From Steroidobacteraceae bacterium (GTDB lineage: Bacteria; Pseudomonadota; Gammaproteobacteria; Steroidobacterales; Steroidobacteraceae), in contig DATMKO010000061.1 of NCBI GenBank assembly GCA_035571175.1, forward strand, positions 1 through 30,235: a DNA stretch of 30,235 nt. Direction: 5' to 3'. The translations under genes and the position numbers were made by a program. A model generated the notes under the pieces. It saw nothing but the letters and a program-made list of their open reading frames with translations, was not told the DNA's origin and did not search any database. Below, piece after piece: positions 1 through 7,481 of this stretch (positions are counted from its first letter, which is position 1; each line of letters opens with the position of its first letter).

Positions 1-2360
1 AGGGCCCGGCTACGGTCGGTGCGCGCCGCGCCCGCGGCGCGATCGGCGGCGATGATCTCCCTCAGCCAATAATCGCGGCCGCTGTAGTCACCCGCCTTTG
101 CCGCCATCGCGCTCAATTTGCTGCGCGCCTCGATGGCAGGATTCAAAGGCTGAGGGAAATGCTTCACGAAGGCCTCGAGCATGGTGCGCGCCTTCGCCGA
201 ATTGCCGGCCTTGTCGTAAAGACTCGCCGCCTGCACGGTGGCTTCGCGCTGCACGTCAACCGATTCCTGCGGCGATGCCGCGATGAGTTCGAATTCGGCG
301 GCGGCTTCGCCGGGGTGATTCGATTCCGAATAAGCCACTGCAAGATTCCTCGTGACATCCGCCTGCAGCGGGCTTTGCGGAAAGTTGCGGCGGAACCCTT
401 CCAGCACGGGGATGGCCCGGTCCCATTGTTTTTCTTTGATGAGCAGCGCCGCGGCATCGAAGTCGGCATTCGCCCGGACTTTCGATGTGGGTGCCAAACT
501 GGCCACGCGCAGGAAATCATCGACGGCCGCCGCGCTGTCGCCCGCCTTGCTCTTCTGTTCTCCTTGCTTGTAGATCGACGCGGCAAGCCGCTCCACGATG
601 ACCGCTCGCTCCGGATCGTTGGGCGCCATCAGGGCCTGCGCATGCGTATAGCCCGCCTCGGCCTTGTCGAATATGCCCTGGTCGAAATTCGAGTTGGCGA
701 TCACCGTCCAGGCGATGCGTTGTTTGCCCGCATCGACTTGCGGCTGCTTCGCAAGCAATGCTTCCGCCGCGGACGTCGCGCGCAGATAGTCCTTGGCGGC
801 ATATAGTTCGGTGGCCGCGCGAGTCAGCACTTGGGCACTTTCCGGGTGAGCGGGAAATGCCGCGGCGAATCGCAAAGAACTGTCGAGAGCCTTGAGATGC
901 AGCGCCGCCTTGGGCTCGCCCGACAGCGTCTCTTCCTGCTTGCCGTAGGCGATGATCGCCGCGTATCCCGCCGCCGCGGCTTTTTCATTATTGCCGTAGT
1001 GGTAGGCAGTGCTTTCATATTCCTGGGCGGCATCCAGATATTGCCGGCTCTCGAACAACGTGTCGGCCAGAAGATAGTTGGTGACCGCGGAATTCGGATC
1101 GTCAGGCCATGATCTCAAGTAGCTGCGATACCATTTGGCTGCCTCTTGGTAATCCGCCACATCCTTGGTGCGCTGCGCCTGGGCGTGATAGTACTGCGCC
1201 ACGTCCTTGAGATTGGTCTGCAATACCGCGACGACTTTCGGTTCGTTCTTTGGGTCGCGTCCCTGCCAATACGGCGTACCGAAACTGTAGTTCTGCACGA
1301 ATTCCCTCTTGCCCTGCAGAACCAGCTGCGGGAAGCCGCCTTTGGAGTACGCTTCGATCGCCTGCATTTCCAGGAGCGGCGCCTTTTCATTGTTGCGGTC
1401 CTGCGAGACGAAGGCGCGGTAGCTGTCGGCGGCATCCGTCCAGCGCTCCTTCTCCATGTACAGATCGCCCAAGCGCGCATACATGAGGTACGAGTACGGG
1501 CGGGACTTGTGGCGCTTGATGAACTCATCGATGGTCTTGGGTCCATCGAGGTAGGAGTAGGTGATCGACATCACTCTGAAGGTATCTTCGACCAATTCGC
1601 GATTGGCCCGGGTCAAGGTATCGATCTCGATCAGCTTGTTTGGATCATTTTTGGCAACCAGTTCCGAATCGAGCACGCCGGCAAAGGAATCCAGGCTGCG
1701 CTCGTTCTCGCCCTGCTTGAACAACGACCAGCCATGTTTGTAAAGACTCTGGTTATAAAACGCGGACGAGGAACCGATTTTGATCACTGACTCGTAGGCG
1801 GCCTGCGCCTTCGGATACGCCTTGTCGGTGAATAGAATCTCGCCGCGGCGAAACTGCGCCTCGTCGATGAAGCGGCTGTTGGGATATTGCGCCACCAAGC
1901 GGTCCAGGGAGGCAAGTCCCTTGTCGGGTTGCGCGTTCAGTTCGTAGGCGCGCGCCAGCTGGTACAGCACCGAGTCGTTGCGCTCGTATTTCGGATATGC
2001 CTTCAGCAGCGCGGTATACAAATGAATGGCTTCGGTTGCGCGTAGGCCTTCGTTGGTGGCGAGTTCCTGCGCGATGCGCTCGGATTCCGAGCTTTCCAGG
2101 TTCAAGTCGCCGAGCCGGCGCAGCGCCTCGGCACGCAGCGCGGCATCGCCCGCGTTCAAATCGAGAAAGCGCTTGTAGCTCTCCATGGTCTTGGCGGCAT
2201 CCACGTTCTTCGGCGGATCGGTATTGACGTCGATCGGCTGATTTTCGAGGTCCTTGATCGTCGCGGGGGGTTTCTGGGTCGCCGCGCCCGAATACGCCGC
2301 TCCAAAAGCCAGCACGGCCAGTATGGCGGCGCCGCATGTCAATTGTGAGACCGAAGCCAT
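1..2360 (-). CDS. Large exported tetratricopeptide-repeat (TPR) protein, truncated at the left edge (at least 786 aa)
   Basis: Not in the ORF track because it has no stop in the window. Translated by hand from ATG 2360, which shares one base with the upstream TGA: MASVSQLTCGAAILAVLAFGAAYSGAATQKPPATIKDL...DSVLYQLARAYELN...DEAQFRRGEILF...QSLYKHGWSLFKQ. The same frame was spot-checked at about 1150 (DYQEAAKWYRSYLRSWPDDP) and at 1-120 (RDYWLREIIAADRAAG). It has a signal peptide and repeated TPR-type helices. Confidence 0.9.
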   Translation of the reverse strand, partial: MASVSQLTCGAAILAVLAFGAAYSGAATQKPPATIKDLENQPIDVNTDPPKNVDAAKTMESYKRFLDLNAGDAALRAEALRRLGDLNLESSESERIAQELATNEGLRATEAIHLYTALLKAYPKYERNDSVLYQLARAYELNAQPDKGLASLDRLVAQYPNSRFIDEAQFRRGEILFTDKAYPKAQAAYESVIKIGSSSAFYNQSLYKHGWSLFKQGENERSLDSFAGVLDSELVAKNDPNKLIEIDTLTRANRELVEDTFRVMSITYSYLDGPKTIDEFIKRHKSRPYSYLMYARLGDLYMEKERWTDAADSYRAFVSQDRNNEKAPLLEMQAIEAYSKGGFPQLVLQGKREFVQNYSFGTPYWQGRDPKNEPKVVAVLQTNLKDVAQYYHAQAQRTKDVADYQEAAKWYRSYLRSWPDDPNSAVTNYLLADTLFESRQYLDAAQEYESTAYHYGNNEKAAAAGYAAIIAYGKQEETLSGEPKAALHLKALDSSLRFAAAFPAHPESAQVLTRAATELYAAKDYLRATSAAEALLAKQPQVDAGKQRIAWTVIANSNFDQGIFDKAEAGYTHAQALMAPNDPERAVIVERLAASIYKQGEQKSKAGDSAAAVDDFLRVASLAPTSKVRANADFDAAALLIKEKQWDRAIPVLEGFRRNFPQSPLQADVTRNLAVAYSESNHPGEAAAEFELIAASPQESVDVQREATVQAASLYDKAGNSAKARTMLEAFVKHFPQPLNPAIEARSKLSAMAAKAGDYSGRDYWLREIIAADRAAGAARTDRSRA

Positions 2361-4252
2361 CACGGTTTGGCCTTCGGCGCATTCGATGCGCGATCATAGA
2401 TCGCGGCCAATTCGTAGCGCGCCTGGATTTGGTAGGCCTCGATGCGCTGTTTTTGACCTTCGAGCTCCTGTATGGCGAGCACTTGCAGGAATCGGTTCTG
2501 CCTCTCCGACACATCGGCCAGGCGCTGCTGCAGATCATCGATGCGGCCGCGTACATCCGAGACACGCGATCCGTACTCGCCGGTGGTCAGCGGCGTACCC
2601 TCGCGAGCCTGCTTGACCAGCACGGCGCGCTTTTGCGTCTCCTTGAGTATGCCCTCGAGTTCCTTGACCGAGCGCCGTTCATTCCACACCCTCGCTTTGA
2701 AGCTCTCCGACAGGCGCCAGTACATGACTCCCTTCATCAGGCGATGCTTTTCGCGCATCTCCGTCAACTCCGGATCGTCCGGGTGCGCCGCGAGATAATC
2801 CTCGATGCGCTTCAATCGCGCCCAGGTTTGCTGCTCCTCGGGCGTGCCCAAAGCCGCCACGTCATTGGATTTCTCGATGTCGTTGATGCGCGATTCGAAA
2901 TCCACGCGTTGCCGGGTCAAGCCGTCGAGATCGGTGGCGCCCAAGACCGCGTCAGCCTTCGGAACGCGTTGCGTATAGGCCGCCTGGCGGGTATCCAGCA
3001 TGTCGTGAAAGGCTGCGATGTCATCGTGCCAGGCGTCCAGATTGCGGCTCATGAAATTGAGTTCGCGATAATTCTTCAAGCCCTCCTGAAATTCATTGCT
3101 CGCCAGGAGTGCGTACAGGTAGCGCGACTCGGGAGCATCGGGCACGCTGGTCAGCTGCCAGTACCAGGTCAGCGTGTCCTTCTTGTCGTCGTTCAGCAGG
3201 CGGTCGAGCATCTTGCCGCTGCGAATCTGTTCGATTGAGTCGTCAATCAGCTTCAATTCGGAATCGAAGGATGCAATCGCCGACTCGTAGCCTTCGGCGG
3301 CCTGCCCGGTGGCGGACAATTGCAAATATGCATAGGGCACGGTGAGAAAGGACTCTTGAACCGCCGAGTCCAGCAAGCTGCGCTTGCGCAATGCAACCCA
3401 TGGCACCAGCGCGCGCTTGAATTCGCCCATGCCGGCGTCCGCCCAGCCGACTCCGAGCAGCGCCTTGCTTGAGTACGGGCCTTCGAGCCGGATTCGCTGC
3501 AGGATGGGCCTGGCTTCAGCCGCCCGCTGCGCCTGCAGCAGCGCAAACCCGAGGGCGAGATTTGCCTTGTCCTTCAGCGCCAACAATTCCGGGCTGCGCG
3601 TCTGCATGGTGCCGACCCGATCAAGATACCTGGCGGCGTCGGCAAGCCGCTCCTTGCGCACCAAAGCTATCCCTAAGTTGAACTGTGCATACGCGGTCCA
3701 GTCCGGCGCACCGTGCCAATTGCTCAAGGCGGCAATCGCCTCGTCATAGCGCCCCTGCTTCATCATCAATTGCGCGATCAGCATGTAACGTTCGGCGTTG
3801 ATGCGCGGATCCATCTTGTCTGAGACCTGCCGCAGCGCGCGCTCCGATTCCTCCAGGTAGCCGCGCTGATACCAGACTTTTCCCAAATAAAACCACGCCC
3901 GGTTGCGCACCGCTTCGGAGGTGTTTTGTTTGAGCAAGGCCTCGAAGATCCTGCCGGCCTCCACGTGCTGGCCCAGCGACAGGTACAAACCACCGAGCAG
4001 CAATTCCGCTTCGCCTTCGGTGTGCGGAATCCGGTTCTGTTCGCGCGCCGCGAGCAGACGGGTAATCGAATCGAAATAATCATCCTGAAAGAAATAAAAC
4101 AGCACATCGCCGTATTGCAGATCCTGCACCACATGCGGCGGCAAACCGTTGGGATCCGGCTTGACGTTTTTCGCCGGCGCGGACGCCAGCGGCAGCGCCA
4201 GCAGCAGCCCGCCGAGGATCAGCGGCCGACGTCTATTAATAACGCGCTGCAC
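2360..4252 (-). CDS. Exported TPR protein with C-terminal coiled-coil region (630 aa)
   Basis: GTG start and signal peptide (RRRPLILGGLLLALPLASAPA). TPR-like repeats (AELLLGGLYLSLG, AWFYLGKVWYQRG, AQFNLGIALV, ANLALGFALL, ALLGVGWA). Helical coiled-coil C-terminal half. Coupled to the neighbouring genes. Confidence 0.88.
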   Translation of the reverse strand: MQRVINRRRPLILGGLLLALPLASAPAKNVKPDPNGLPPHVVQDLQYGDVLFYFFQDDYFDSITRLLAAREQNRIPHTEGEAELLLGGLYLSLGQHVEAGRIFEALLKQNTSEAVRNRAWFYLGKVWYQRGYLEESERALRQVSDKMDPRINAERYMLIAQLMMKQGRYDEAIAALSNWHGAPDWTAYAQFNLGIALVRKERLADAARYLDRVGTMQTRSPELLALKDKANLALGFALLQAQRAAEARPILQRIRLEGPYSSKALLGVGWADAGMGEFKRALVPWVALRKRSLLDSAVQESFLTVPYAYLQLSATGQAAEGYESAIASFDSELKLIDDSIEQIRSGKMLDRLLNDDKKDTLTWYWQLTSVPDAPESRYLYALLASNEFQEGLKNYRELNFMSRNLDAWHDDIAAFHDMLDTRQAAYTQRVPKADAVLGATDLDGLTRQRVDFESRINDIEKSNDVAALGTPEEQQTWARLKRIEDYLAAHPDDPELTEMREKHRLMKGVMYWRLSESFKARVWNERRSVKELEGILKETQKRAVLVKQAREGTPLTTGEYGSRVSDVRGRIDDLQQRLADVSERQNRFLQVLAIQELEGQKQRIEAYQIQARYELAAIYDRASNAPKAKP

Positions 4253-4255
4253 GCA

Positions 4256-4933
4256 TCATTCCCAGTCTTTGATCATGAACTCAGGTTGATGCTTGGGAAC
4301 ACGGTCGGTGATCTTCAGCTCCAGATACTTTGCACCGACGCCCTTGTCGAAACTGATGGTGGCGCCGCGCTTGTAGGCGCGCTCCACCGGACCCTTGCCG
4401 GTAAAAAACGCCACCAGTTCATGTTTGCCGACCTTCAAATTGCCCAAATAAATCTGCTGCACTCCGCCCTTGAGCAGTGCATCGGCTTCGCGCGCGGTGT
4501 ACAGATAATTCTTCACTTCCTTGTTGTCGATCTTGACGGTCACCGAATCCAGCGCGAAGAACGTGCCTACGTCCATCGATATGTAGAGCGCGACCTGGGT
4601 ATTGGCGGGAAACAGCAGTTCTTCTTGCAGAACGAACAGGTCCTTGTTGAGGTCAATGACGTCCTTTTTCAGACTCTGCACTTCCTGATCCAGGGTCTTG
4701 AGTTCGGCCGGCGGCGCATCCGGGGCTGCGGCAGCTGCCGGCGGCGCGGAATCGCTCCCCGGCGTTGGGGCGGCAGCGGCCGGATTTTGCTCGCTCGGCG
4801 CAGCTGCCGGCGGCGTTGCCGGAGCCGCAGCTGCGGGGGCCGCCGCGTTCGCCGCCGACGCGCCTGCGGCCATCCACGCCGCCGACAGCACGCCGAAAAC
4901 CATGATCGACACAACCCGGACTTTAAGATTCAT
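4256..4933 (-). CDS. Secreted protein: signal peptide, Ala/Pro-rich linker, coiled coil and beta-rich C-terminal domain (225 aa)
   Basis: Signal peptide, AAAPAAAAPATPP low-complexity linker, coiled coil LDQEVQSLKKDVIDLNKDLFVLQEELL, then a beta-rich domain. No helix-turn-helix is visible. From memory, homologues are often labelled 'AraC family regulator', which the sequence does not support. Confidence 0.8.
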   Translation of the reverse strand: MNLKVRVVSIMVFGVLSAAWMAAGASAANAAAPAAAAPATPPAAAPSEQNPAAAAPTPGSDSAPPAAAAAPDAPPAELKTLDQEVQSLKKDVIDLNKDLFVLQEELLFPANTQVALYISMDVGTFFALDSVTVKIDNKEVKNYLYTAREADALLKGGVQQIYLGNLKVGKHELVAFFTGKGPVERAYKRGATISFDKGVGAKYLELKITDRVPKHQPEFMIKDWE

Positions 4934-4947
4934 AACTGGCCTATCGT

Positions 4948-5451
4948 TTACTCGCGCAGCAATTCGCGAATTTGATCAAGAAAAATGCGCTCATCACCGC
5001 GCTTGAAGCCGACAATCGAATAGCGCACCACGCCGGCGCGATCCACCAGGATCGTCATGGGCATTTTTTGCAGCAAGTAGTCTTTGCCGATTTCTGATCC
5101 GGTATCGAACAGGATCGGATATGACACTCCCATCGCGACCGCGAACTCCTGCGCACGGCGCAGATCCTCGTCGACCGACACGCCGATCACCACGAGTCCG
5201 GCGCGCTGGTAGGTGGTGTTGATGCGGTCGAGCGCCGACATCTCCTGCCGCGAATCGCCCGCCCAGCGCGCCCAAAAATTAACCAGAACCACCTGGCCGC
5301 GATACTCGGACAAGCGCAAATTTCTGCCATCCAGTCCACGCAGCACAAAATCCGGCGCCTCCTTGCCCACCATGGTCGGCGCGGCCGCAAGCGAGGAGCC
5401 GGCCATTGCGGCGCCGAGGATCAGGCAGCCGAGGAAGAATGCTCTACGCAT
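4948..5451 (-). CDS. TlpA/ResA-like thioredoxin-fold protein lacking both active-site cysteines (AGDS in place of CxxC)
   Basis: APDFVLRGLDG..LRLSEYRGQVVLVNFWARWAGDSRQEM..MPMTILVDRAGVVRY is a typical TlpA scaffold. Codons at 5251-5262 read GCG GGC GAT TCG (A-G-D-S). The only Cys lies in the signal peptide. Confidence 0.88.
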   Translation of the reverse strand: MRRAFFLGCLILGAAMAGSSLAAAPTMVGKEAPDFVLRGLDGRNLRLSEYRGQVVLVNFWARWAGDSRQEMSALDRINTTYQRAGLVVIGVSVDEDLRRAQEFAVAMGVSYPILFDTGSEIGKDYLLQKMPMTILVDRAGVVRYSIVGFKRGDERIFLDQIRELLRE

Positions 5452-5499
5452 GCGGTGCTAAATTCAAGCTGACGCCGAAGCGCCGCGATTCATCAATCA

Positions 5500-5585
5500 C
5501 GCTGGTAACCCCGCTGTCCTAGGAACACCCCGTAGACCGGAAGCTTTGCGCCCTCGCCTTTCAGCGAGTTTGCCCTGATCAGACC
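5500..5585 (-). ncRNA. c-di-GMP-I (GEMM) riboswitch
   Basis: The minus strand reads GGUCUGAUCAGGGCAAACUCGCU-GAAA-GGCGAGGGCGCAAAGCUUCCGGUCUACGGGGUGUUCCUAGGACAGCGGGGUUACCAGCG. It aligns by eye to the V. cholerae Vc2 aptamer: P2 stem CUCGCU/GGCGAG with GAAA tetraloop, GCGCAAAG junction and AGCGGGGUUACC 3' end. Ligand-contact equivalents G20 (5574), A47 (5547) and C92 (5505) and the C44-G83 pair are conserved. P1 can form G14-C93, U13-A94 and C12-G95. It lies about 50 nt upstream of ATG 5451. Confidence 0.95.
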
Positions 5586-5591
5586 TTATGC

Positions 5592-5621
5592 AAAATCGCA
5601 CAATGCGAGCCGCAGTGTCAA
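5592..5621 (-). promoter_or_regulatory. Candidate sigma70-type promoter for the riboswitch-led transcript
   Basis: Perfect TTGACA at 5621-5616. A 17-18 nt spacer gives only a weak -10 (CGATTT/GATTTT). The implied start at about 5586 would sit just 5' of the aptamer. Confidence 0.4.
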
Positions 5622-5785
5622 CGCAGCGGCAGCGGCTTCACTGGATTTCTGTATGACTTGGCGCACATTCATGGAATTTCATTGCGATGCTGCTCTCGTG
5701 ACATGCCACGCACCGCTCGAGGCGCACAATGCAAGCGGCTTGCTACCCCGCATCACTGCTCGATGTGTTGTCTCTGGATTGAGAC

Positions 5786-5810
5786 AGACCTGCGCGGAAA
5801 GCGCAGGTCT
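5786..5810. repeat. Perfect inverted repeat, 10-bp stem
   Basis: AGACCTGCGC-GGAAA-GCGCAGGTCT, read directly from the sequence. Confidence 0.8.
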
Positions 5811-5844
5811 AAAAGCCAAGGGTCCGACGTCAGCCGGACCCTTG
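5811..5844 (-). terminator. Probable intrinsic terminator downstream of the DUF1501-like gene
   Basis: The minus strand reads CAAGGGTCCG-(8 nt)-CGGACCCTTG followed by GCTTTT, starting about 18 nt after the TAG at 5862. The U-tract is short. Confidence 0.6.
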
Positions 5845-5861
5845 TGTTGCAGATCACATTC

Positions 5862-7481
5862 CTAGGCAACTAATCCATTGACGAGACCGGCCAGCGGTTG
5901 CCATGCAACCAGCGGTTCGAGCGCGGTGCCGCTGCCCAGGGTGTTGTTCAAGTTCGGCGCGGGCCACAGTGTCGGCCACGCGGATATCGCGTTGGCACTG
6001 TGCAGCGCCATGTAGTTGAGCACCACCATCTGCACCAGGTTGGGTACGTTGTTGCCGGCGGGGCTGCCGGTGGTGTTCTGCGAACCGTCGGGATTGAAGT
6101 TGCCGATCTGCAAACTCATTTCCGGATTGGATTGCGCGGACACCGCCCTTCCCGCGGGATTGAAGACCAGGAAATAGGTCGCCGCGACGCTTTGGTTGTC
6201 GGCCGTCCAGACGCCCTTGCCGCGCCCGCCAACGGAGTTGTCGATCATGCCGTTGCTGGCGAGCGAGCCGTCGCTGAATACATAGATCATCACCGGTTTG
6301 CCCACGCGGTTGGCATATTCCAGAACCGCGCCGATGCAATTGCCCAGGTTCAAATCCTTGGCCTCACCGTCCATGCGGTTGCCGCTGTGATAGTCGAAGC
6401 CGCCCATTTCGATGGTGCCGGCGGCGGCATTGCCGTCGATCACGAGTTTCATGACTGCCGCGGTCGCTTGATAGGACGAGTTGGCCTGGTATTCGGCCGT
6501 TTGGAAGATGCCGCTGGCGCCCACGATGTTCGGATCCACGTCGGGATTCACGGCGGACGGACTGTTGTACTTGTCGACGATGTAGGCCGACTTCGTATAG
6601 CCGCAGGCCTCGATTCCGGCCGACCCGATTGCTGCGGTATTCAATGCCGCATTATTCGGATACGCCGTCACCACGCCGTACTTGGCATCGCTGATGCGCT
6701 TCATGGACTCCAGCACATTGGTGACGTCGGAAGAATTGGGCAGCAGCGTGCTCAACTGTCCGGTGCTGACCAAACCCTTGCTGTCCTGCGAACTGGAGAT
6801 TTTGGTCGGCGTCGCCGACGGGATGACCATGGTGGGCGGTGACATGGAGTTGCCACCCGACATGGAACTATCCGTGCCGATGAGATTCAGCAGGCCGCCG
6901 CGCGCGCCCGCTTGATAGATGCCGTACATCGGGTTGTGCGGATTGGTATTGGTATCGTTTTGCGACAGCGCAGGAATGATCGTGCCGGTCGTGCCCGCCA
7001 TGGCCGCGGCGCTGGCCCGCAGCTTCATGCCGCGCAAATGCGCGCTGTCCGAGTGATAGCGCAAGCCGAAGCTCGCGTCGACGAAACTACCCGAGGCGCT
7101 GGCATTCGGCACCATGGTTCCGGGCAGTCCCAGTTTGCTGTAGCCTGCGACCGAGAGGAAATCCAGCTGCCCGGCAGGACCGCCGACCAGCACATTGGAT
7201 CCGGCGATATTGCCGCCGCCGGCGAGGTCGAAGCAGATGAACGGGATCTTGCCGGCGCCGGTGGTGATGTTGCAGGCGGTTACCGCGGCCTGGATATCCG
7301 CAGCGAGCGTCGCGCGAGCAGATCGCGGGTAGGCCAGCATACCGGCCAGCGTCGGTGCGACCACCGTCGCCGCGCCGGTGATGAAGCCCTGCGCGAGGAA
7401 CTCGCGGCGCGTGCGTGGCCGTGGGTGATCCTGGTGACGGAACGGCCCGTTGGTACCCGCCGTAACTGATTTCTTGCTCAT
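5862..7481 (-). CDS. Tat-exported DUF1501-like protein of unknown function (539 aa)
   Basis: Twin-arginine motif RTRREFLAQG with a signal ending SARA. The motifs PFICFDLAGG, IEMGGFDYH and VMIYVFSDG resemble the DUF1501 motifs (xFLxGG, GGWDTH, vvxsEFGR). A purine-rich SD (GGAAGAGG) precedes ATG 7481. Confidence 0.65.
   Translation of the reverse strand: MSKKSVTAGTNGPFRHQDHPRPRTRREFLAQGFITGAATVVAPTLAGMLAYPRSARATLAADIQAAVTACNITTGAGKIPFICFDLAGGGNIAGSNVLVGGPAGQLDFLSVAGYSKLGLPGTMVPNASASGSFVDASFGLRYHSDSAHLRGMKLRASAAAMAGTTGTIIPALSQNDTNTNPHNPMYGIYQAGARGGLLNLIGTDSSMSGGNSMSPPTMVIPSATPTKISSSQDSKGLVSTGQLSTLLPNSSDVTNVLESMKRISDAKYGVVTAYPNNAALNTAAIGSAGIEACGYTKSAYIVDKYNSPSAVNPDVDPNIVGASGIFQTAEYQANSSYQATAAVMKLVIDGNAAAGTIEMGGFDYHSGNRMDGEAKDLNLGNCIGAVLEYANRVGKPVMIYVFSDGSLASNGMIDNSVGGRGKGVWTADNQSVAATYFLVFNPAGRAVSAQSNPEMSLQIGNFNPDGSQNTTGSPAGNNVPNLVQMVVLNYMALHSANAISAWPTLWPAPNLNNTLGSGTALEPLVAWQPLAGLVNGLVA

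Follow-up and report, generated by a model that had tools for sequence, protein, structure and literature searches.

A predicted class-I cyclic di-GMP riboswitch ahead of a TPR and Tol/Exb-type envelope operon in a Steroidobacteraceae genome

Among GEMM riboswitches, the combination of a GAAA tetraloop with a receptor-like motif is a common arrangement (PMC1950547). Of the two guanines of c-di-GMP, one is read by G20 at its Hoogsteen edge and the other forms a pair with C92; an A in place of G20 is the mark of the cGAMP class, and the wild-type G20 discriminates against cGAMP (PMC6140456). On the protein side, the closest described gene clusters are the Agl-Glt 'core complex' clusters of Gammaproteobacteria, which comprise GltC, D, E and G together with AglR, Q and S and one extra gene (Luciano et al. 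2011, PMC3169522), and whose function is stated as unknown (PMC3169522).

We analysed a window of 30,235 nucleotides, the whole of one contig from a Steroidobacteraceae MAG that is 76% complete. We estimate at roughly 0.85 the probability that a functional class-I c-di-GMP aptamer heads here the mRNA of a ten-gene envelope operon, expressed from a conserved promoter of predicted sigma-70 type. The initial annotation had proposed a near-complete GEMM-I aptamer, together with a covariance-model search for the Rfam family RF01051 (c-di-GMP-I) as a way to check it. That search (Rfam release 15) returned a significant match of 71.2 bits (E = 2.7e-12), compared with a gathering score of 35 bits, and this was the sole Rfam family match in the 30 kb window. 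The GEMM-I identity was therefore upheld, but not the qualifier, as the match spans model positions 1-87 of 87 and the aptamer is complete. A GAAA tetraloop caps its first hairpin, the second hairpin carries a receptor-like CUACG/CUAGGA motif, and the invariant segments CAGGGCAAAC, GCGCAAAGC and GGGGUUACC are all present in the aligned sequence. The features of the locus are collected in Table 1.

Table 1. Riboswitch, leader and operon features, in positions of the window
Feature	Position	Strand	Basis or remark
Two G+C-rich hairpins	5786-5841 (5820-5841, then TTGGCTTTT; 5786-5810)	-	Read from the sequence
-35 hexamer TTGACA of the predicted sigma-70 promoter	5616-5621	-	5' edge of the conserved block
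Predicted extended -10, TG-c-GATTTT, 18 nt after the -35	5592-5600	-	Conservation
c-di-GMP-I (GEMM-I) aptamer	5501-5584	-	RF01051 match and compensatory changes in orthologues
Aptamer first hairpin	5548-5573	-	GAAA loop at 5559-5562
Aptamer second hairpin	5507-5545	-	
Aptamer closing 3-bp helix	CUG 5580-5582 with CAG 5502-5504	-	
Hairpin H0, GUGAUU-GAUG-AAUCGC, adjoining the aptamer 3' end	5485-5500	-	RNAalifold consensus of 12 short-leader orthologues
Hairpin H1, GGCGC-UUCG-GCGUC	5471-5484	-	RNAalifold consensus of 12 short-leader orthologues
A/U-rich 19-nt spacer lacking a Shine-Dalgarno sequence	5452-5470	-	Before the start codon
Gene 1, exported thioredoxin/AhpC-TSA-like protein, CxxC replaced by AGDS	4948-5451	-	PF00578, 7.8e-25; translation
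Gene 2, exported 225-aa protein	4256-4933	-	No Pfam or NCBIfam family
Gene 3, 630 aa, N-terminal TPR repeats	2360-4252	-	Profile matches; translation
Gene 4, large TPR protein with YbgF/CpoB-like repeats	3-2363	-	Residues 1-787, cut by the contig end

For comparison, gene 2 served as the probe to gather orthologous loci from relatives. Eighty loci were fetched, 74 of them including upstream DNA, and a thioredoxin-like gene precedes gene 2 in all 74. The relatives are uncultured Steroidobacteraceae from soil, peat and sediment. We define as genus-type those loci with a Cys-less gene 1 of at least 60% identity (n = 50).

Directly 5' of the aptamer stands a block of the form GCG-TTGACA-C, 17-18 nt, TG-C-GATTTT-GCATAAG, which is 90-100% identical in 45 genus loci; the -35 hexamer and the TGCGATTTTGCATAA of the extended -10 are invariant (45/45) and the spacer is 17 nt long in two loci. 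Conservation starts abruptly at TTGACA, with unconserved sequence upstream of the -35 in the 45 loci, and the 5' limit first given to the element (5621) falls on this hexamer. The block is kept in species with a deleted aptamer, and this survival fits a promoter rather than a part of the RNA. A generic promoter scan of positions 4800-6100 did not flag it, so the promoter call derives from conservation. The predicted transcript start would lie at about 5585-5587 and would precede the Rfam match by 1-3 nt.

The aptamer is oriented in the sense direction and ends 50 nt ahead of the ATG at 5451; it stands directly after the conserved promoter and behind two hairpins, in agreement with the first assignment of the TPR operon as its target. 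These G+C-rich hairpins, which the terminator scan did not flag, follow the stop of the upstream gene at 5862 and probably shield the riboswitch operon against transcription arriving from that side. Two other candidate elements were discarded. The one minus-strand 'terminator' that the scan reported, at 5596-5608, falls within the promoter spacer, ahead of the predicted start; and the spacer palindrome TCGCA-ttg-TGCGA, considered as an operator and also as a CRP/Clp-like TGTGC-N6-GCATA site, has a variable left half and a right half that overlaps the -10.

The ten genes of the operon are split between two contigs, with four in the window and six on contig C458 of the same genome. C458 opens with the last 150 residues of gene 4 (94% identity to residues 798-941 of a relative's protein), and the two contigs therefore abut. 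Genes 5-10 on C458 are the same six genes, in the same order, as those that continue the operon in the relative G002: a third TPR protein, an unknown 197-aa protein, a MotA/TolQ/ExbB-family protein, two ExbD/TolR-family proteins and a TonB-like protein. In G002, the TolQ-like protein matches PF01618 (1.3e-23), PF02472 is found twice, in the two TolR-like proteins, and the C-terminus of the TonB-like protein matches the AgmX/PglI domain NF033768 (60.7 bits, cut-off 40); the ExbB-like protein of C458 is 95% identical. Hence the 'TPR operon' of the initial annotation does contain TPR proteins, but its extent had been underestimated, as the operon is larger and continues on C458 with a Tol/Exb-type motor.

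As to the individual products, AGDS replaces the CxxC motif of gene 1 at window positions 5251-5262. Gene 1 is Cys-less in 50 of 50 genus-type loci and retains CxxC in other genera and families; the loss of the cysteines is genus-specific and does not depend on whether a locus has the riboswitch. The AlphaFold model of the gene 2 product consists of a long helix and a beta-sandwich, with a mean pLDDT of 65, and gave no PDB match at E <= 0.001, so we describe its fold as 'helix plus beta-sandwich' only. Its C-terminal domain of 150 aa is very conserved (LFPANTQV...YLYT...GGV...QPEF...WE), and 29 of the 151 gammaproteobacterial families sampled have the gene. The label 'AraC family transcriptional regulator', attached to its relatives in some sources, was rejected as a misfit with an exported protein. 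The C-terminal half of gene 3 looks like a coiled coil; its orthologue in G002 gave sub-threshold SMC-like matches.

In the mechanism that we propose, the aptamer would form the first ~85 nt of an mRNA starting at about 5585-5587. Binding of c-di-GMP at G20, A47 and C92 would lock the 3-bp closing helix and the two hairpins; the locked aptamer would fix the fold of the next 50 nt, with hairpins H0 and H1; and this fold would set the accessibility of the A/U-rich start region. Within this explanation, we consider it slightly better than an even bet that the output lies at translation initiation, with Rho polarity as a possible consequence.

The leader between the aptamer and gene 1 agrees in two respects with what had been read at first. 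The UUCG hairpin without a U-tract is H1, whose tail, AGCUUGAAUUU, is not a proper U-tract, and the terminator scan of positions 4800-6100 did not flag it as terminator-like; and no Shine-Dalgarno sequence of the GGAG/GAGG type occurs within 20 nt of the ATG at 5451. Several other genes in the window also lack one, weak or absent Shine-Dalgarno sequences being common there, which makes the start of gene 1 unremarkable in this respect. In the 12 short-leader orthologues, both H0 and H1 show one-sided changes only, all of them compatible with pairing. As there is no canonical terminator, control is probably translational; the translational or Rho-dependent control suggested earlier is compatible with this absence.

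Relatives with a long leader (77-85 nt) have a GCGGUGAGG...CCGC hairpin that holds the Shine-Dalgarno sequence directly before the ATG, and no U-tract after the equivalent hairpin. A lineage-specific deletion of ~29 nt from the leader, which removed this hairpin, accounts for the missing Shine-Dalgarno sequence in the window. Long-leader loci in which the gene 1 Shine-Dalgarno sequence lies inside the conserved hairpin include L010, L017, L018, L020 and L065. Many long-leader loci also have, just upstream, an in-frame mini-ORF, AUG-(NNN)-CGG-UGA, with its stop overlapping the Shine-Dalgarno sequence; it is absent from the window because of the same deletion. An upstream ORF in the window itself, from GTG 5500 to a TAG overlapping the ATG, was dropped because its frame is not kept in relatives.

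Folding of the whole leader was no more stable than that of shuffled sequences (z = +0.67). Unconstrained folds of the window contain two alternative pairings: one joins the aptamer core GGCGC-A-AAGC to H1, at its loop and 3' arm, and the other joins the 5' end GGUCUGA to UUAGCACC, immediately upstream of the ATG. They predict opposite directions of switching, according to whether H1 serves as a terminator or as a decoy for an anti-start element. With constrained folding, the accessibility of the start site in the window was 0.55 in the bound state versus 0.40 in the free state, and the change was ~0 in many orthologues; over 25 orthologues, the rise upon binding was small and inconsistent, with no consistent direction. 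We regard ON and OFF switching as evenly balanced. In three lineages a partial deletion has spared just the 3' half of the aptamer, with the downstream genes intact, and the tolerance of such deletions leans slightly towards expression in the free state.

Transcription attenuation is the foremost alternative to control at the start codon, although we hold it to be unlikely. Here H1 (5471-5484), with its U-containing tail, would serve as a weak intrinsic terminator in an OFF switch: in the free state, the GGCGC/AAGC of the aptamer core would capture the 3' arm of H1 and allow read-through, and with c-di-GMP bound H1 would form and stop transcription. In the unconstrained minimum-energy fold, H1 does engage the core through its loop and 3' arm, but the H1 stem has just 5 bp. 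Better U-tracts follow H1 in several short-leader orthologues (for example, AAUUUUGAUUUUG and AUUUUAAUCG), whereas the tail in the window fails the terminator scan and the long-leader relatives have no U-tract after their hairpin. Terminators are used by 78 of 322 GEMM RNAs, but in the usual GEMM design it shares sequence with the second hairpin, on the 3' side (PMC1950547), and here H0 intervenes. The tolerance of 3'-half-only deletions in the three lineages is easier to reconcile with expression in the free state, as attenuation would have it.

Returning to the reading of a functional aptamer, we examined its conservation with a covariance model, R1, built from 18 aptamers, which gave 39 matches; 37 distinct sequences were analysed. 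In this alignment, which was fitted to the model and so favours the structure, 95.6% of cells hold standard pairs and 8 of the 21 pairs have changed on both sides. None of 500 column shuffles reached the observed covariation score, and sliding the partner columns, as a control, brought pairing down to 38-57%. Covarying stems had been claimed from the window, which as a single sequence cannot show covariation; the compensatory changes across the 37 orthologues now provide it. In some species the distal part of the second hairpin is wholly rebuilt, with pairing retained.

Within the genus, the aptamer is subject to turnover. Among the 50 genus-type loci, 35 have a strong aptamer, two a partly deleted one (L077 and L074) and 13 none; in a smaller set of 17 usable genus loci, 15 have it at that same place. 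The losses in the genus are deletions from which the promoter and some aptamer fragments survive (L045, L051, L055, L059, L076, L088 and L089). The thirteen sister species without the aptamer still have the operon, so riboswitch control is dispensable. Farther afield, none of 24 loci from other genera of the family (~40-50% gene 1 identity, CxxC intact) has the aptamer, as confirmed with Rfam on 20 of them, and GEMM-I occurs at the same place in three of seven loci from other families of the order (L029, L030 and L033), where gene 1 keeps its CxxC. In 28 other sampled gammaproteobacterial families with gene 2, no GEMM-I lies nearby among the matches listed, which come from the part of the first-look candidates that was scored.

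A wider deletion series (L045, L051, L055, L059, L064, L067, L076, L077, L078, L081, L088 and L089) has the promoter block intact and the aptamer partly or wholly gone, sometimes with the transcript start fused almost directly to the start codon.

GEMM-I aptamers are common in the order, being present in 114 of 151 sampled genomes with up to 21 per genome. Many form tandem pairs 150-240 nt apart among the matches listed, as in G210:C26:111525-111851, G224:C103:12-320, G227:C9:467107-467389 and G040:C84:7084-7401. The genome of the window has a second full-length c-di-GMP-I aptamer (69.3 bits) at C153:1926-2020 on the minus strand, equivalent to L002:1501-1595 on the minus strand. It lies directly upstream of a gene for a 466-aa FAD_binding_4 (PF01565) protein and downstream of one for a KefB-like Na/H exchanger with TrkA domains.

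These losses raise the question of whether the aptamer, albeit intact, now regulates nothing in the lineage of the window, the ~29-nt deletion having removed the expression platform and loss being under way. We find this improbable. Short leaders do lack the GCGGUGAGG...CCGC hairpin of the long-leader relatives, and folding shows no clear switch, but 12 of 12 short-leader loci keep an aptamer with a full score (at least 99 bits with model R1). The 13 genus loci that lost the aptamer and the two with partial copies are likewise offset by the pair-preserving substitutions, by the rebuilt and still paired distal second hairpin, and by the conservation of H0 and H1 in the short leaders, all of which argue that selection continued after the leader deletion.

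Concerning the ligand, alignment to the family model places G20 at 5574, A47 at 5547 and C92 at 5505, which is the canonical c-di-GMP set; in the Vc2 structure, A47 also contacts the ligand. G occupies position 20 in all 37 aligned orthologues as well as in the window. Because the set is canonical, and both the A20 signature of the cGAMP class and the G47 of family RF03167 are absent, the c-di-GMP class first read from G20 holds. We infer that the aptamer in the window binds this ligand, for whose supply the genome may rely on the enzymes behind its 18 GGDEF matches, and the RNA itself is an ordinary, standard c-di-GMP-I riboswitch.

It is accordingly very improbable that the RNA senses another cyclic dinucleotide, be it 3',3'-cGAMP, in the manner of GEMM-Ib, or the ligand of a variant class. 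RF03167 (c-di-GMP-I-GGC) does score slightly higher than RF01051 for three close relatives at the same locus (L004:850-934, L008:2719-2801 and L019:715-801), but the G that distinguishes this model, at position 47 after the G-C pair, is an A in these three and in the window, so membership was rejected for them all; their match is an artefact of a similar first stem without G47. Likewise, position 20 is G, not A, and G20 discriminates against cGAMP (PMC6140456). Clan competition in Rfam nonetheless puts the canonical aptamers of L004, L008 and L019 in RF03167, and automatic annotation would mislabel them.

Contigs from four soil metatranscriptome runs cover and bridge the aptamer and gene 1 (5282-5520, with 0 mismatches; 5320-5521; and 5151-5496), which denotes presence in RNA libraries only, as such contigs may hold DNA and cannot show ends, strand or level. 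One of the RNA-library contigs (5497-5624, 3 mismatches) extends 37 nt past the predicted start. None from the four runs covers 5625-5724, and several stop at 5520/5521, the start of a species-variable loop. Contig ends and depth were rejected as evidence for a start or a stop, because contigs do not show ends and depth is confounded by relatives. The least probable reading of all is that the leader works mainly as an abundant RNA of its own, with the free aptamer serving as c-di-GMP sponge or small RNA rather than in cis: in some soil RNA runs the summed contig depth is greater over the aptamer than over the coding sequence (14.9 versus 3.1 in run X4), but contig depth cannot rank parts of a gene, contigs of relatives pile up on an aptamer that is near-identical in many species, there is no terminator, and contigs bridge the aptamer and the coding sequence.

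The value of this riboswitch lies in its target, a Tol/Exb-type motor with TPR scaffolds, for which a second-messenger input is a testable clue to when the machine is needed. True homology between this operon and the ancestral Agl-Glt 'core complex', with a machine wired directly to c-di-GMP, seems to us tentative, somewhat short of an even chance. If this is true, the machine would be tied to the decision between surface and free life, and the sister species that lost the aptamer and kept the promoter would offer a ready-made comparison of regulated and constitutive alleles; the tie to a sessile/motile switch drawn at first is speculation. The genus also affords a clean view of riboswitch turnover, with a constant promoter and an aptamer that is intact in 35 loci, partial in two and gone in 13, and with a platform reshaped by the ~29-nt deletion in the lineage of the window; aptamer loss and leader remodelling are thus well resolved in close relatives. 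A full-text literature search for a c-di-GMP riboswitch together with ExbD, TPR or TonB found nothing.

Compared with known riboswitches, the element most resembles Vc2 of Vibrio cholerae (VC1722/tfoY leader; RF01051; PDB 3IRW), with which it shares the two-hairpin GEMM-I fold, the GAAA tetraloop and receptor-like motif, the AAA linker, the G20/A47/C92 set and a short closing helix that adjoins C92. We take CAGGGCAAAC and GGGGUUACC to be identical to the corresponding Vc2 segments. Unlike Vc2, it precedes an envelope operon of TPR and Tol/Exb type rather than tfoY, and its predicted platform consists of two small hairpins and a start without a Shine-Dalgarno sequence. The GEMM-Ib riboswitches for 3',3'-cGAMP in Geobacter (for example, Gs1761) have in common with it the fold, the family model and the location upstream of cell envelope or surface genes, but carry an A at the G20 equivalent (PMC6140456), where the window and its 37 orthologues keep G.

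As to the operon, Tol-Pal (TolQ, TolR, TolA and CpoB/YbgF) offers a MotA/ExbB-family channel, ExbD/TolR-family partners, a TonB/TolA-like transducer and TPR repeats of YbgF/CpoB type, all of which have counterparts here, the TPR repeats with TIGR02795 matches of 106-109 bits. Unlike Tol-Pal, the operon has no TolB or Pal, has two ExbD paralogues and encodes much larger TPR proteins; the TolQ and TolR equivalog scores are all far below their cut-offs. Like the Agl-Glt core complex, it gathers in a single cluster the genes for three TPR proteins, for one TolQ-like and two TolR-like proteins and for a TonB-like protein, here with an AgmX/PglI tail, as well as extra genes without myxobacterial counterparts. 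GltE is the top NCBIfam match of the third TPR protein (44.9 bits, cut-off 225), the GltG equivalog reaches 31 bits versus 650 on the TonB-like protein, and the NCBIfam GltC and GltD models matched none of the operon TPR proteins. We treat the TPR proteins as putative homologues of GltC, D and E at most, and for this reason we call the operon core-complex-like rather than a proven member; unlike the core clusters as published, it begins with a thioredoxin-like gene and has the riboswitch as its predicted control.
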